A DNA stretch of 64,000 bases from Eledone cirrhosa (lineage: Eukaryota). The notes below the pieces were generated by a model. That model was not told where the DNA came from. It searched no databases and saw only the letters and a program-made list of their open reading frames with translations. Location of the stretch: NCBI GenBank assembly GCA_964016885.1, contig OZ024748.1, positions 1,922,001 to 1,986,000 of the forward strand, in the 5' to 3' direction. Shown here piece after piece: positions 8,973 to 45,685 of this stretch. Within the stretch, counting starts at the first letter, position 1. The number at the start of each line of letters is the position of its first letter. Made by a program: the position numbers and the translations under genes.

Positions 8973-9434
8973 GGTGGCTGCCAACTCGTTTTCGAGTACG
9001 GCCACTACTTTATATCCATGTAGGAGAACTCCTACCGATGCGCTGAACGAGTGTCACGTTTTAGTCCAGCCAGCGACTTGAAAACTCTGGTACAAACACT
9101 ACACTTGTGACAATTATTGACACATAGTGCTGGGCCCATGGTACCATATGACGACAAGTGCAGAGAGATCTCCAGATATAAAGCAATGCCTGTGCCGTGA
9201 AGCTTTTATAGTGAGCAAAGGCACTGCACAAAGCCAGTCCCACTCTCTTAACCAAGATGATATTTACCAAAAAGAAGAACAAGTCAACATCATTGGATAC
9301 CATCAGAGTTGCAGGTGTTATGTCAGAGTTTTCCTTCTCCTAGAATTCTGCCTTGACAAAGGCTAAGGGGTCATCTCTCCCGGTGATTTTGGATGGCCAT
9401 TGACTCCTAAGAGCTCCTTTGCCCTTTGACAGGT
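8973..9434 (-). mobile_element. 5'-truncated copy of the bipartite non-autonomous RTE derivative
   Basis: Near-identical to 36251-36710; ends in CSVCTRVFKSLAGLKRDTRSAHR*; flanked by CATA/CA repeats. Confidence 0.8.
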
Positions 9435-23335: not shown

Positions 23336-24452
23336 ATCAGGTTATGAAAGTGGCAGAAAGGATATTAGCACAACTAATTAGAGAAAGGGTCAAACTAGAT
23401 GAGATGCAGTTTGGTTTTGTGCCTGGGAAGAGTACAACAGATGCCCTCTTCTTGGTGAGACAATTGCAAGAGAGGTTCTTAGAGAAAAATAAGCCACTAT
23501 ACTTAGCCTTTGTTGACCTAGCAGTGGTGGAGGGTGCTCTGAAAGTACAGTAGCTAGAGTCAGAACTGGATGGAAAAAGTTCAGAGAGCTTATACCACTA
23601 TTAGCCGCTAAAGGGTTCTCTCTAAAAATGAAAGGCAGGTTGTATGATGCCTGCATACGAACAGCAATGTTACATGGCAGTGAGACCTGGGCATTGTGTG
23701 CAGAGGATATACGCAGACTGGAGAGGAACGAAGCTTGCATGCTCTGCTGGATGTGTAATAGTAATATACGTGAACGGCAAAGCATAAACGAACTAAGGGA
23801 AAAATTAGAAATAAGAGGGATCAGATGTTGTTTACTCGAGAGAAGACTACGTTGGTATGGTCACGTGATGCGCATGAAAGACAACAGCTGTATAAAAAAG
23901 TGCAGGGCAATAAAAATAGACGGTAGCCATGGAGTAGGCAGACCCAGAAAAACCTGGGACGACTTGATAAATTCCGACCTCACACACTTACACCTCTCCA
24001 AGACAATGTCACTGGACCGAGATCTTTGGCGCTATACAGTAATAGAGAAGACCCACCTTACCTAAGTACAAAGTGAAACCTACTACAGTCAGTAGGCACC
24101 TCTAACAAAAATACACCCCGGGCCCACTACCCCCACCCCATCCACACCACCCCTTTCAATGAAAAGTTATGTTTGTACCACAACATCCAGTCCGAAACAA
24201 ATGTGGTCGTGTAGTGGTCACGACAAAAAAACACACAGTCCACGCTGTAATGTGGCCGTGTAGGTAACACGGTAAAAACCTCCCAGTCCACACTGTAAAT
24301 GTGGTTGGTGTTAGGAAGGGCATCCAGCTGTAGAAAACCCGCCAGACAGTCCTATACGAGCAAGACAACCAATCTTGCCTCAAGTGGGAAAACTCCCGTC
24401 CAAACCCATGCAAGCGTGGAAGATGGACGTTAAATGATGATGATGATGATGA
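23336..24452 (+). mobile_element. 5'-truncated, internally deleted RTE LINE (RT fragment, C-terminus, 3' UTR)
   Basis: MQFGFVPGKSTTDALF..YLAFVDL, then a jump at ~23520 to [22 protein letters not shown], then [26 protein letters not shown], stop at 24065, (GAT)n tail. Confidence 0.93.
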
Positions 24453-29835: not shown

Positions 29836-29960
29836 AAAGAAAGGTGTGGTAAGATACCATGTTGACCATAACAACCAGAGTACTCGATACTTAGGGTAGT
29901 AAAGTGAGTAATAGAACAGATAGATCTGAATCTAGTTGTCGAAACGGCCGGAGTTCATCT
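29836..29960. mobile_element. Diverged member of the 20920/45281 family with a short inverted segment, abutting the RTE fragment
   Basis: AAGGTGTGGTAAGATACCATGTTGACCATAAC..GTACTCGATACTTAGGGTAGTA, followed by inverted GTCGAAACGGCCGGAGTTCATCT. Confidence 0.65.
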
Positions 29961-31322
29961 ACGCTGCTGCTGACTTGTACTGCTGGCCCCTCTATAGGGT
30001 CTACTTGGGGTAGGGTCTCTTCTTCCCATGCATTCTCCTCATTTAGTAATCTATCATAATGGCTCTTCCATGCATCTTTCTTCTCAGCACTTGTGAGGGC
30101 AAGCTCACCTTTATCATTCCGGATACACTTCTCTCCAATGACATCACAATTCTCTCTGACACACTGCCTCGCAATCTTGAACACCTCCTGTTTCTGGTCC
30201 TCACATTGCAAAACATGCTTGAATTTTCTATCCTCTGCTTCCCTCCTAGCTAAGTATACTTGTCGCCTAGCTTCCCTCTTGGTCTCTATATAATGTACCC
30301 TGCTCCCCCCGTTCTTCCATTCTTTCCATGCCTGTCTCTTGGCCTTAACTGCCTCATCTACCTTATTGTTCCACCACCAAGTCACTCTCCTCCTGCTTGT
30401 GGTCTTACTCCAGCCATGGACCTCATCCGTCACCTCTAGTAAGTTATTTTTTAGGAACTCCCAGTGCTCTTCTACATTGAATGTCTCTATCTGTTCTTCT
30501 TTACTGTCGTAGGTGTTGAGTAAAATATCTTTAAATCTGGCTGAGGGGTCTTTCAGCTTCCAGATCTTTCTTCTCCAGGTTGGCTTCTGTTTCCAGGTTC
30601 GTCTAGTTCTGACCGTGAGGTCGCTGACAACTAAGCTATGTTGGGAGGTACATTCCTCACTAGGGTAAGCTTTTGTATTTACGACCGTCCATCTGTCACG
30701 TCCTCTGATGAGGATAAAATCTATCTGACTAGAATGCTCTCCTGATCTATAGGTGATCAAGTGGTCGTCGGGTTTTTTGAAGTTTGTGTTTCATATCGAC
30801 ATGTCATTGGCGTCGCAGAATTCTAGAAGTCTGAATCCTTCATTTCTTGTGCCAACCCCATGGCCTCCATGGATTCTATTGAAGCCGTCACAGTGTTTAC
30901 CTACATGTCCGTTAAAATCTCCTGCGATGATTAGGAAGTCATTGTCGTTTGTTAGAGCAGTAGTGTGCATTAGGGACTCGTAAAATCTATCCTTAAGTTC
31001 GTCTGGCAACCCTGATTGGGGTGCGTAAGCTGATATTATTGTGGTAATTATTTTATTCAGGACTAGTCTGAGTTTCATGATTCTTGCATTTACCTTGTAC
31101 ACTGAGATTACTTTATCTACCCACTTGTCAGCTAGTAGTATACCTACACCACCCATCCCATTGTCATTTCCCAACCAGAAAAATTTGTAGCACCGACTTT
31201 TTCCTACAAGGACTCTAGCAGACTCTCCTCTCCATCTAGTCTCTTGCACACAGCATATATCAATTTCCTTTCGCTCTAGCATTTCTACGATTTCTCCTGC
31301 TCTTCCTTTCATTGTGCTTACA
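29961..31322 (-). mobile_element. RTE LINE fragment: APE endonuclease and linker, one in-frame stop
   Basis: CCVQETRW, SAYAPQSG, GDFNGHVG, SQIDFIL, SQHSLVV and TWWWNNKV motifs; ORFs 30791..31345 and 29891..30760 are in the same frame, separated by TGA at 30791-30793. Confidence 0.95.
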
Positions 31323-31381
31323 ATATATATATATATTGATTCCAAATATTAACAAAAATAGAACTTCTTTGTGATCAAGTA

Positions 31382-31479: not shown

Positions 31480-31521
<42 letters not shown>

Positions 31522-31526
<5 letters not shown>

Positions 31527-31731
31527 TTTATAGAAGGAGCTTCTACAGGAGTAGTACTGTTTCATTCAGATGAAATCTTCAGGAAGCTTCAGGAAGCTTC
31601 CTGAAGATTTCATCTGAATGAAACAGTACTAGTCCTGTAGAAGCTCCTTCTATAAAATAAAAATATTTTACTCTGCCATGTATTGAGTACCTTACTTACT
31701 GTGGTTACCCCCGACTCAACCCGGGACCTAC
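31522..31731 (+). mobile_element. Penelope-like pLTR fragment with inverted partial copy and hammerhead-like core
   Basis: Inverted repeat 31522-31661; + arm CTGAAGA-TTTCATCTGAAT-GAAAC-AGTACTA-GTC; continues to GTATTGAGTAC..TTACTGTGGTTACCCC; TA arrays on both sides. Confidence 0.7.
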
Positions 31732-35927: not shown

Positions 35928-36250
35928 CAATGATTTGAGATTTTATATTTGAAACAGTTATGGAAATTATCCTAGAATTATGATGCAAGGCAGGAATTTG
36001 TGTAAATATGTTGCATAGATCTGTCTAAACCATAATAGCAACAATGAAATTAGTATTAAAACTGATGATTATGGTGGTGTTAGTGCACAGATTGATGAGG
36101 CAAAAGACGTTGGTGACAGTCTGTGAGAATGTCCAACTCATTCATCATTTTCTATGTTTGATATGAATCGATAGTAAGACTGCATGATAATCGCTTCTTT
36201 CATTGTACAAGACCTGAGTACAGCATGGTTATATACATACATATATATAT

Positions 36251-36856
36251 GGTGGCTGCCAACTCGTTTTCGAGTACAGCCACTACTCTATATCCATGTA
36301 GGAGAACCCCTACCGATGCGCTAAACGAGTGTGACTTTTTAGTCCAGTTAGCGACTTGAAAACTCTGGTACAAACACTACACATGTGACAATTATTGACA
36401 CATAGTGCTGGGACCATGGTACCATGTGACAAGTGCAGAGAGATCTCCAGATATAAAGCAATGCCTGTGCCGTGAAGCTTTTATAGTGAGCAAAGGCACT
36501 GCACAAAGCCAGTCCCACTGTCTTAACCAAGATGATATTTACCAAAAAGAAGAACAAGTCAACATCATTGGATACCATCTGGGTTGCAGGTGTTATATCA
36601 GAGTTTTCCTTCTCCTAGAATTCTGCCTTGACAAAGGCTAAGGGGTCATCTCTCCCGGTGATTTTGGATGGCCATTGACTCTTAAGAGCTCCTTTGCCCT
36701 TTGACAGGTTTTGTTTTTAGTCCTGCAGGATGTCCAAAGTCACCCTCCTCACCAAAAAACCTTGGTGGGGTTGCCAGTTTAGTCGCCAACGACCCGACCA
36801 TGAGACAGGTTGTACTGGGATACATGTTACCAGTAGCACCAACTGGTGACCTGACA
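36251..36856 (-). mobile_element. Bipartite non-autonomous RTE (BovB-like) derivative: 5' UTR fused to ORF C-terminus and 3' UTR
   Basis: RTE 5'-UTR-like motif TAGGAGAAGGAAAACTCTGA; 36399-36310 encodes VNNCHMCSVCTRVFKSLTGLKSHTRLAHR* (C2H2 finger); short 3' end CTCGAAAACGAGTTGGCAGCC; second copy at 8973-9434. Confidence 0.75.
36774..36851 (-). ncRNA. Candidate HDV-like ribozyme (degenerate)
   Basis: P1 GGTCA/TGGTC, J1/2 hairpin ACCAGT/ACTGGT, P2 CCAGT/ACTGG, CC/GG P1.1, P4 TCG-TTGG-CGA, J4/2 CTAA; P3/L3 spacing is non-canonical. Confidence 0.5.
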
Positions 36857-36960
36857 TAACATGCATGCATACATGCATGCATACATACATACATACATAC
36901 ATACATACATACATACATAAAAAGATACATACATACATACATAAAAAGATACATACATAC

Positions 36961-37808
36961 AGAAAAAGTTGTGCATGGATACTTGAGACGTAAAACACAG
37001 ACCATAGAGGGGATAAACCACTCAAAAAGCCTGGCATGGAGTTCCGACAAGTTTATGACATCACACCTTGAGGGATATCTCTATGCAATACAGGAACAAG
37101 AACTCCCTACCAAATATCTGCTGCACAAAAGGGGAGGGCCAGCAGCTGACAATAAATGTAGGCTATGTAAAACAAAGATCGAGGATGTAAGCCACATTGT
37201 TGCCAGCTGCGAAAGAATGTCATCTCGCTACTACCTCCCCATGAGACACGATGGGATAGCTAGAACCATCTGGAACGCACTTCGGAAAACAAAATTAACA
37301 ACAAACGAGGAAGAATATATTGAGACAGATGGCACTAAGGAATACTGATGGAACCTGAAAATAAAAACTGCCACCAAATTAAAGCAAAACCGGCCTGATA
37401 TTGTTGTTTGGGACCACACATTGAAAACGTGTTCTGTTGTGGAGATCAGCTGCCCACTTGATGTAAACGTTGTCAGAAAAATACAGGAGGAGGAGGACAT
37501 CTACGGACCATTGATGAGGAGTTTACAAATCCAGTATCCAAGATACACCTTTAGCTTCATACCCATCATTATTGGAGCTACGGGTTATATACCAACCCAC
37601 TTGGACCAAAGTATGACTGAACTTGGATTTGCAGACAAAAAGCACAGCTCCCTAATTCATAGTCTACAAATGGCTGCGATAGCTGGCACCTTCAAAATTT
37701 GCAAAACATTCTTGCGATTCAAGGGATGACAATTTCTTTTCTTTTACAACCTTGTCACCAGGAGTGGCCAGTCAAAAAAATATACTCGAAATTAAGAGAA
37801 AGAGATAA
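36961..37808 (+). mobile_element. R4/Dong-like non-LTR element 3' fragment (CCHC knuckle + restriction-like endonuclease) in (CATA)n
   Basis: AIQEQE..CRLC..EDVSHIVASC..RHD, premature TGA at 37346-37348, then NRPDIVVWD..VVEISCP..IIIGATG, stop 37729; CATA repeats on both sides. Confidence 0.92.
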
Positions 37809-43943: not shown

Positions 43944-44628
43944 AGTGTTGCTATGACACTATTTAATGGGGGAACTAGGGGTTGTTTGCAGGTGTTGCCA
44001 TGACACTATTTAATGGGGGAACTAGGGGTTGTTTGCAGGTGTTGCCATGACACTATTTAATGGGGGAACTAGGGGTTGTTTGCAGGTGTTGCCATGACAC
44101 TATTTAATGGGGGAACTAGGGGTTGTTTGCAGGTGTTGCCATGACACTATTTAATGGGGGAACTAGGGGTTGTTTGCAGGTGTTGCCATGACACTATTTA
44201 ATGGGGGAACTAGGGGTTGTTTGCAGGTGTTGCCATGACACTATTTAATGGGGGAACTAGGGGTTGTTTGCAGGTGTTGCCATGACACTATTTAATGGGG
44301 GAACTAGGGGTTGTTTGCAGGTGTTGCCATGACACTATTTAATGGGGGAACTAGGGGTTGTTTGCAGGTGTTGCCATGACACTATTTAATGGGGGAACTA
44401 GGGGTTGTTTGCAGGTGTTGCCATGACACTATTTAATGGGGGAACTAGGGGTTGTTTGCAGGTGTTGCCATGAAACTATTTAATGGAGAACTAGGTGTGT
44501 TACCATGGCATTATTTAATGGGGTACTAGGATGTGTTGCCATGGTACAATTTAATGGGGAACTAGGATGTGTTGCCATGGTACAATTTAATGGGGAACTA
44601 GGATGTGTTGCCATGGCACTATTTAATC
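43944..44628 (+). repeat. 47-bp minisatellite (~11 copies) followed by 36-bp related units
   Basis: Unit GGTGTTGCCATGACACTATTTAATGGGGGAACTAGGGGTTGTTTGCA recurs every 47 bp from 43991 to 44461. Confidence 0.96.
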
Positions 44629-45170: not shown

Positions 45171-45272
45171 AAAAAGTTCCAAGTATTTTATTATGCGCAT
45201 TTCAAAAACAAATATCATCCCAGTATGATATTTGTTTTTGAAATGCGCATAATAAAATACATGGAACTTTTT
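45171..45272. mobile_element. Palindrome made of two hammerhead 3' halves (pLTR fragment)
   Basis: ~48-bp arms with a short loop (CCCAGT); each strand reads GAAA-T GCGC A-TA-ATAAAATAC; no CTGANGA. Confidence 0.7.

Positions 45273-45685
<413 letters not shown>

Follow-up and report, generated by a model that had tools for sequence, protein, structure and literature searches.

At positions 36251..36856 of the window, by which is meant the whole 64,000-nt stretch of Eledone cirrhosa DNA that was analysed, the minus strand carries a 606-bp non-autonomous RTE-derived retroposon of a family designated A, the consensus of which is 609 bp. Its ends are sharp and bounded by TA/TATG microsatellites; an AT/ATGT microsatellite at 36230..36250 (minus strand) is its tail or its target, and among 105 3' flanks of family members ATGTATGT was present in 40 and ATATATAT in 32. 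An earlier reading made from the sequence alone had described an element of about 600 bp in two copies, of which the size and the strand stand, whereas the second copy in the window (8973..9434, minus strand, 96% identical) is 5'-truncated at element position 148 and headless, and the family is far larger. Exact 25-mer counts across the 3.0-Gb genome, which as exact matches are lower bounds, gave 10,453 intact heads and 25,924 tails with 0 hits for the reversed-pattern controls, which puts the full-length fraction at about 40%. The 96 distinct full-length copies from the loci fetched diverge from the 609-bp consensus by a mean of 1.6%, a low estimate because the copies were chosen by similarity; the element is a young retroposon family. 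Its tails cluster, with at least two tails at 20 of 90 loci.

The element is inserted into a microsatellite within the 3' portion of an older LINE that has a restriction-like endonuclease motif. This LINE flanks it at 36860-37729 (plus strand), where the ORF pieces lie (zf-RVT, E 1e-7), and at 36150-36230. Another copy of this zf-RVT LINE is broken near the same position by the intact RTE described below (L228).

RTE-derived body and candidate partner LINE

The proposal that the unit is a bipartite RTE derivative, in which a part of an RTE 5' UTR is joined to an RTE 3' end with no ORF, was borne out. The body at 36458..36664 (minus strand; element positions 193-399) aligns at 69% identity with the UTR of an intact RTE LINE found in the same genome, and according to the part of PMC5786205 that concerns it (its supplement), the motif at the 3' end of the body is also present in RTE 5' UTRs. 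A C2H2-like finger had likewise been recognised near the 3' end and is indeed present, as the last C2H2 finger of the parent ORF, at 36316..36387 (minus strand), followed by a stop codon at 36312-36310. Because its score against Pfam zf-C2H2 (20.1 bits, E 8e-4) lies under the cut-off of 25.2 and the 609-bp family consensus holds no long ORF, the finger is a relic; 14 of its 27 residues are identical to those of the last finger of the intact RTE ORF. The element ends in a stem-loop at 36252..36283 (minus strand; z = -4.1, 0 of 200 shuffles), and 26 of its last 30 bases are identical to the 3' end of the intact RTE. This 3' stem-loop is likely the signal recognised by the RTE protein.

The intact LINE family (L224, L225, L227, and L234-L237) encodes APE, RT, and C2H2 fingers in an ORF of about 1180 aa with three such fingers; in L234, spanning L234:1178-5310, the ORF comprises 1181 aa from the first Met. 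The head of the retroposon is absent from this family, whose 5' region is a different sequence of 1.6 kb with no Rfam match at its 5' end. The intact RTE is therefore a candidate mobiliser and not the direct parent, and the head is dispensable for the intact LINE. Thus, the autonomous RTE with both ends, for which the earlier reading had advised a search, was found as regards body and tail but not as regards the head, and no headed autonomous parent occurred among the RTE loci fetched. Heads near old RTE loci were considered as parents and proved to be separate insertions, with the exception of L193:3440-6892 (minus strand), where a family B head is followed by about 300 unrelated bases and then by a decayed RTE ORF with several zinc fingers; this locus may be a headed autonomous copy or a nested insertion. 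The 1.6-kb 5' region of the intact RTE (L244:3562 onwards; L234) is microsatellite-rich and starts with a short sequence, perhaps captured from a host promoter or exon, at the end of which stands a motif resembling a splice donor.

A protein search for the partner with the finger peptide returned nothing, three long open frames considered as candidates were microsatellite artefacts, and 17 loci from a search with the RT family were of the unrelated CR1 type. Loci L176-L192 contain a very young CR1-type LINE with a 945-aa ORF2 and many intact copies. RTE-2_OV of Octopus vulgaris (PMC9115989) resembles L234 as an RTE LINE with APE, RT, a C2H2 finger, and a microsatellite 3' UTR. However, since two of the three published RTE-2_OV primers have no match in L234 and the third matches with 3 mismatches, and since RTE-2_OV has 1109 aa (PMC9115989) against 1181 aa, the partner is a family related to RTE-2_OV and not that element itself.

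In keeping with the earlier reading, in which no Pol III promoter is needed, the element lacks a Pol III-type (tRNA) head: no tRNA was detected, Rfam gave no tRNA-, 5S-, or 7SL-type match, and no B box occurs before position 499 at one mismatch.

Resemblance of the head to subclass-1a xrRNAs

The first 60 positions of the element (36797..36856, minus strand) have the architecture of a subclass-1a exoribonuclease-resistant RNA (xrRNA), a nuclease-blocking knot of mosquito-borne flaviviruses. In the relevant parts of three published accounts, this subclass is defined by a three-way junction, a C between P2 and P3, and a U.A-U triple (PMC8374639, PMC7527734, PMC8571300), the junction being built of a 5-bp P1, a variable P2, and a P3 of 4-8 bp (PMC7527734), with a PK1 of 1-2 bp that includes a G-C pair and a PK2 of 2-7 bp (PMC8374639, PMC8571300). 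The head has such a three-way junction at 36806..36853 (minus strand), formed by P1 (36853-36849 with 36810-36806), the P2 hairpin (36848-36837), and P3 (36835-36830 with 36818-36813), and the single unpaired C between P2 and P3, at 36836, is C21 in the consensuses of all four related families described below. U1-G2, the 5' strand of the predicted PK1, lies with U3 at 36854..36856 and faces C45-A46 (36812-36811), whereas the predicted PK2 (36799..36826) joins L3 at 36826-36823 to 36802-36799 by 4 bp. In element numbering, P1 is 4-8/47-51, P2 9-20, P3 22-27/39-44, and PK2 31-34/55-58. PK1, comprising G2-C45 and U1-A46, is paired in 97% of cells, with position 1 varying in family D; PK2 has 6 bp in family D and 4 bp in the other three, and is paired in 95.6% of cells with no two-sided change. 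U3 and the A23-U43 pair are present in the sequence and could form the U.A-U triple contact. At 64-75, where a P4 after PK2 would be expected, a 4-bp hairpin unlike the Rfam 3' hairpin occurs in A, B, and C and has one mismatch in D.

A search of Rfam (4227 families) gave RF01415, the flavivirus 3'-UTR SL-IV, as the best match for the A, B, and D heads, with scores of 23.2, 21.2, and 26.8 bits (E 0.038, 0.11, and 0.008), respectively. These scores (21-27 bits) fall far short of the gathering threshold (54.5), and in the same search the heads had no match to RF03547, the general model for xrRNAs. The alignment to RF01415 retains the GUCAGG start, all core pairs, the junction C, and the CA before the 3' strand of P1, with the 3' hairpin of the model as the part missing; relative to the viral consensus, C-G is exchanged for U-A in one pair each of P1 and P3, and the conserved P1 sequence aligns with that one compensated pair. 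A sequence pattern joint to the head and the Rfam consensus had 1 match in the window, 0 in 100 shuffles, and 11 in a viral collection, of which exactly the 5 near the end of 10.7-11.1-kb contigs pass the subclass-1a descriptor described below. Against RF01415 these five flavivirus-sized contigs score 27-71 bits. As three of these five viral controls score 27-30 bits, the low scores of the heads do not exclude membership. The pattern of the head itself found nothing in the viral collection, and two prokaryotic pattern matches were set aside as chance. Two further sequences of the viral collection that are not flavivirus-sized, L369 (4255 bases) and L370 (3725 bases), contain a subclass-1a-like junction in which the basal pair of P3 is U-A, as in the retroposon head; both satisfy a relaxed descriptor and score 22-24 bits against RF01415.

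With both strands of the 64-kb window scanned, the structure-first subclass-1a descriptor, which has six fixed bases, gave a single match, at 36855, against 0 in 1.2 Mb of control sequence. It is passed by all four family consensuses and, among individual copies, by 68 of 81 in A, 13 of 22 in B, 2 of 7 in C, and 6 of 10 in D. When the 63-66 nt at the 5' end were folded without constraints, the three-way junction formed in A, B, and D, together with a competing nested fold in which the leader pairs with the 3' strand of PK2; fragments of 67 nt and 120 nt took other minimum-energy folds (z 0.07 and -1.2). Judged from sequence and comparison, the head very probably adopts an xrRNA-like fold, and we consider it likely, with less assurance, that this fold works as an exonuclease-resistant structure. 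The molecule would then be expected to form a ring-shaped tertiary fold and to resist Xrn1 and Xrn2.

Sister families and conservation of the predicted fold

Three sister families, B, C, and D, have the first 120 nt in common with A and diverge beyond. Family C has the UTR and terminus of the intact LINE, and family D carries the RTE motif that is reported from Ceph-SINEs in PMC5786205. In 17 distinct heads of families A-C, the pairs of the xrRNA model are intact in 95.8% of cells with 10 two-sided changes, a count drawn from related sequences, and none of 500 shuffles scored as high; with D included, 90.4% of cells in 76 distinct heads are paired in an alignment fitted to the structure model. 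The two-sided changes between families are limited to P2, a stem that is fully paired in each of the four families but different in every one and that RNAalifold missed on the plain alignment owing to gap placement. P1, P3, PK1, and PK2 neither support nor contradict the fold because they are nearly invariant. Among 97 A heads, all 4 variants in at least 3 copies fall in loops or preserve pairing as wobbles, whereas 16 of 32 rare variants break a pair, a comparison that involves four common variants and loci chosen by similarity.

Downstream of the head, a conserved 7-bp hairpin (36750..36767, minus strand), with both-sided changes in D, is followed by a conserved GAGGAGGG motif, and a loop CCC could pair with a conserved GGG near position 112.

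In family D, heads also occur at no fewer than 7 loci in head-to-tail arrays of 4 to 13 units of about 97-115 nt (among them L175:1136-1830, L137:1578-2286, L320:278-1537, L318:1175-1543, and L122:1588-1991). Each unit opens with an xrRNA-like core and the units are joined at short microhomology; L320 contains up to 13 of them. A homologue from another sample, at L141:3436-3541 (minus strand) on a metagenome contig, is a decayed head that fails the subclass-1a descriptor. Behind it lies a broken endonuclease frame that belongs to another RTE type, an arrangement suggestive of autonomous elements with this head outside the present genome.

Position of the 5' end

The element is preceded by a three-base leader, TTA, at 36857..36859 (minus strand), which is out of phase with the flanking repeat. 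A phase-breaking TT occupies -3/-2 in 17 of 72 heads of family A (background 0.018) and in 8 of 19 of family B (background 0.045). The TTA leader stands before 16 of 73 A heads, and an inherited leader ends at the distance of 4 nt in these and in 8 of 19 heads of B; elsewhere the flanks are indistinguishable from the target repeat, and all counts refer to DNA copies. At base -4 the sequence is variable (A 8, T 5, and G 3 in 16 heads). Since the TT leader is kept and the base before it varies, the inherited sequence would end four bases before G2. Family D has mostly non-microsatellite flanks; there, conservation begins at G2 (24 of 29) and U3 (26 of 29), and position 1 and the leader vary. The start of the leader is likely the true 5' end, 4 nt before the G of PK1. 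According to a passage in PMC12081666, class-1 xrRNAs halt Xrn1 mainly four nucleotides upstream of PK1.

Proposed mechanism and alternative explanations

Based on these features, a possible route to the 5' end of the element is proposed. Read-through transcripts from host promoters could be the source of the RNA. Host 5'-3' exonucleases may trim such RNA and stop at the knot, which would leave an element-length RNA with a 4-nt leader, so that the knot would both define the 5' end without a promoter of its own and protect the uncapped RNA. It is known that xrRNAs let polymerases through from the 3' side. The RTE LINE protein may then bind the 3' stem-loop and prime reverse transcription in TA/TATG repeats, the target often being the tail of an earlier copy, and mobilisation could occur in trans through the intact RTE family, which has a similar 3' stem-loop. 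The knot would thereby be the counterpart of the HDV-like and twister ribozymes of other LINEs. As published in part of PMC8374639, xrRNAs stop several unrelated 5'-3' exonucleases. On balance we favour this full model, in which an xrRNA-type head would set and protect the 5' end of an RTE-copied retroposon. The earlier reading had the element released from host transcripts without a Pol III promoter by cutting itself out; the idea of release survives, but an exonuclease block appears likelier than self-cleavage. A structured RNA does coincide with the 5' boundary of the element, but its identity as an HDV-like ribozyme is not supported.

An alternative of some weight, which we nevertheless regard as unlikely, is that the head acts as a promoter for RNA polymerase II, internal to the element, from which transcription starts at the leader. 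The xrRNA-like fold, though real, would then not set the 5' end but only lend the RNA stability or have a role in protein binding or translation in the parent LINE. Internal promoters are expected to give sharp 5' ends, and a promoter-fixed start would give an end as sharp as that observed. Mouse L1 promoters are built of monomers, and the tandem head monomers of family D fit promoter monomers, as they fit tandem xrRNAs. Bipartite LINEs have been argued, in a section of PMC5786205, to be transcribed by Pol II, and the portion of PMC4035085 on L1Tc describes one 77-nt head that is both promoter and ribozyme. However, P2 shows compensatory changes and variants spare the pairs, both indicative of selection acting on RNA structure; the core of the knot is conserved in family D while position 1 and the leader vary, and the boundary lies at the known halting distance of Xrn1.

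It is improbable, and more so than a promoter, that the head is an undescribed self-cleaving ribozyme or some other look-alike of an xrRNA, cleavage of which just upstream of G2 would set the 5' end. RTE elements carry HDV-like and twister ribozymes according to parts of PMC5786205 and PMC8501958, and the conservation past the 60-nt core and the possible CCC-GGG pairing count in favour of this reading. In contrast, Rfam contains no ribozyme family that matches any head at E 10 or below, which applies equally to twister, twister-sister, hammerhead, pistol, and hatchet, and the junction C and the bases of the triple are present, which a chance resemblance would not need. For these five ribozymes the order of motifs, judged by eye, is also wrong.

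The HDV-like ribozyme of the earlier reading, thought to cut at 36851 and free the element, retains hardly any probability. Ruminski (2011) is reportedly the original paper on HDV-like ribozymes in RTE elements. The helices of the head can be written in HDV order, with a CUAA, a possible J4/2 conserved in all four families, ahead of a possible P2 strand, and a relaxed HDV descriptor matches 74 of 81 family A heads. However, this relaxed match is confined to A, with none in B, C, or D, sits in a different register with a 5-bp P1 and P2 that are both mismatched, and is obtained with 291 of 2000 shuffles; relaxed HDV-like folds were at chance level in further shuffles as well (32 of 40 and 20 of 40). 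The canonical descriptor, which recovers 33 of 40 control loci (a phage HDV-like ribozyme) and 54 of 2000 shuffles, matches 0 of 120 heads (81 A, 22 B, 7 C, and 10 D), so that the HDV pseudoknot order assigned to the minus-strand 5' end was not confirmed. As reconstructed, the fold of the earlier reading is paired in 80.3% of cells, a value that does not stand out from the shuffled control (161 of 500); for P3 the paired share is 45%, and 19 of 36 sequences cannot form the central P2 pair. P1 in its register has 5 bp including two wobbles, compared with the 6-7 bp from the cleavage-site G in HDV-like ribozymes, and the HDV-type 3-bp P3 closing a 6-8-nt L3 (U-Y-C..G) with P1.1 is not formed. 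An alternative 7-bp P1 with positions 113-119 exists in A, B, and C, encloses neither L3 nor P1.1, and fails in D. The registers examined (G at 36851, P1 from position 2, long-range P1 to 113-119, and those in the upstream flank) were all rejected because none unites L3, P1.1, and P2 or holds across the four families.

The earlier reading had named as refuting it a consensus that leaves the imperfect P1 and P3 unrestored and 5' ends that extend beyond the predicted cut, and both were found. The consensus of 30 close copies equals the window copy over the first 100 nt. Full-length copies begin at 36856 or as much as 3 nt outside it, which puts their ends 5-8 nt upstream of the predicted cut: in two sets of 30 copies chosen by their 3' part, each of which includes the window copy, 15 and 12 have their first base at 36856, compared with 1 of 30 at 36852 and 2 of 30 at 36851. 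Moreover, 10,453 genomic heads retain the four bases upstream of 36851, which contradicts a cut there, as ribozyme cleavage would have removed them. The HDV reading is thus refuted by the standard that it had itself set. A 12-nt deletion at 15 places, which removes the J4/2 and P2 strand of that reading, was considered as a sign of propagation without that part and dropped; as its carriers are without a common diagnostic variant, the deletions look like recurrent microhomology events and give no proof of such propagation.

Relation to known systems and implications

Compared with the subclass-1a xrRNAs of flaviviruses (RF01415; ZIKV xrRNA1 and MVEV xrRNA2), as the cited portions of PMC8374639, PMC7527734, and PMC8571300 describe them, the head shares the 5-bp P1, the P2 hairpin, the single C, the 6-bp P3, the G-C pair in PK1, the bases of the U.A-U triple, a 4-6-bp PK2, and the sequence of the P1 strand, as well as a probable 5' end about 4 nt before PK1 and, in family D, tandem copies. 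In contrast to these 3'-UTR structures, it stands at the 5' end of a genomic retroposon, where it is known from sequence, contains U-A for C-G once each in P1 and P3, and has a downstream hairpin that differs from the Rfam model. The likeness to flaviviruses, seen here in one genome, may reflect descent or convergence. Putative xrRNAs have been reported from marine invertebrate flaviviruses, one of them from squid, in a part of PMC8128465.

Bipartite RTE derivatives are already known from the pertinent part of PMC5786205, and those listed there (RTE-N, Bov-A, WALLSI3, and RTESINE2) resemble the present element in combining a 5'-UTR part with an RTE 3' end without an ORF, in their microsatellite tail, and in their many 5'-truncated copies. 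Unlike them, the present element has a C2H2 ORF relic in its 3' part and a head that is not tRNA, 5S, or a known ribozyme and that occurs in four sister families with different tails. Ribozyme heads are known as well, as parts of PMC8501958, PMC6765202, PMC4035085, PMC4908430, and PMC10879173 document. LINEs with such heads and their short derivatives (R2/SIDEs, L1Tc/NARTc, and the twister variants of Perere-3; PMC6765202, PMC4035085, and PMC8501958, in the sections concerned) are comparable in having a structured RNA at the exact 5' boundary and a possible release from host RNA. In contrast to them, the present head has no HDV or twister core and is predicted to block exonucleases, not to cut itself.

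Section 7 of a 2021 review (PMC8374639) describes xrRNAs as characterised in viruses only and asks about eukaryotic genomes, and a statement within PMC12081666 (2025) holds that no xrRNA is known in cellular RNAs; the terms 'retro' and 'eukaryotic genome' are absent from PMC12397905. In the openly accessible literature, at the level of search listings, no paper on a retrotransposon with a natural xrRNA came up; the repeat family itself may already be catalogued in Repbase/Dfam. A wider interpretation would see in the head a working flavivirus-type xrRNA, present in more than 10,000 copies, that serves as the 5'-end device of RTE retroposons parasitising host 5'-3' decay, would attribute the likeness in P1 to module exchange with flaviviruses in either direction, and would expect stable, decay-resistant RNAs from intronic or downstream copies. 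This interpretation is tentative, its chances falling a little short of even. If true, it would add a third route to a defined retroelement 5' end beside internal promoters and ribozymes, place the xrRNA-type knot, so far viral, in a cellular genome, raise the question of movement of the fold between retrotransposons and flaviviruses, and predict many exonuclease road-blocks in host transcripts. The locus offers for this purpose a 60-nt candidate with point predictions.

Other features of the window

Another RTE-type LINE with an endonuclease domain is represented in the window by fragments at 29891-31348 (minus strand), 23517-24433 (plus strand), 55618-56253, and 57017-57545, and its 3' ends are repeated several times. 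Near-perfect palindromes lie at 31517-31666 (about 150 bases) and 45171-45541 (100-370 bases), and a tandem repeat with a unit of about 94 bases occupies 43945-44627.
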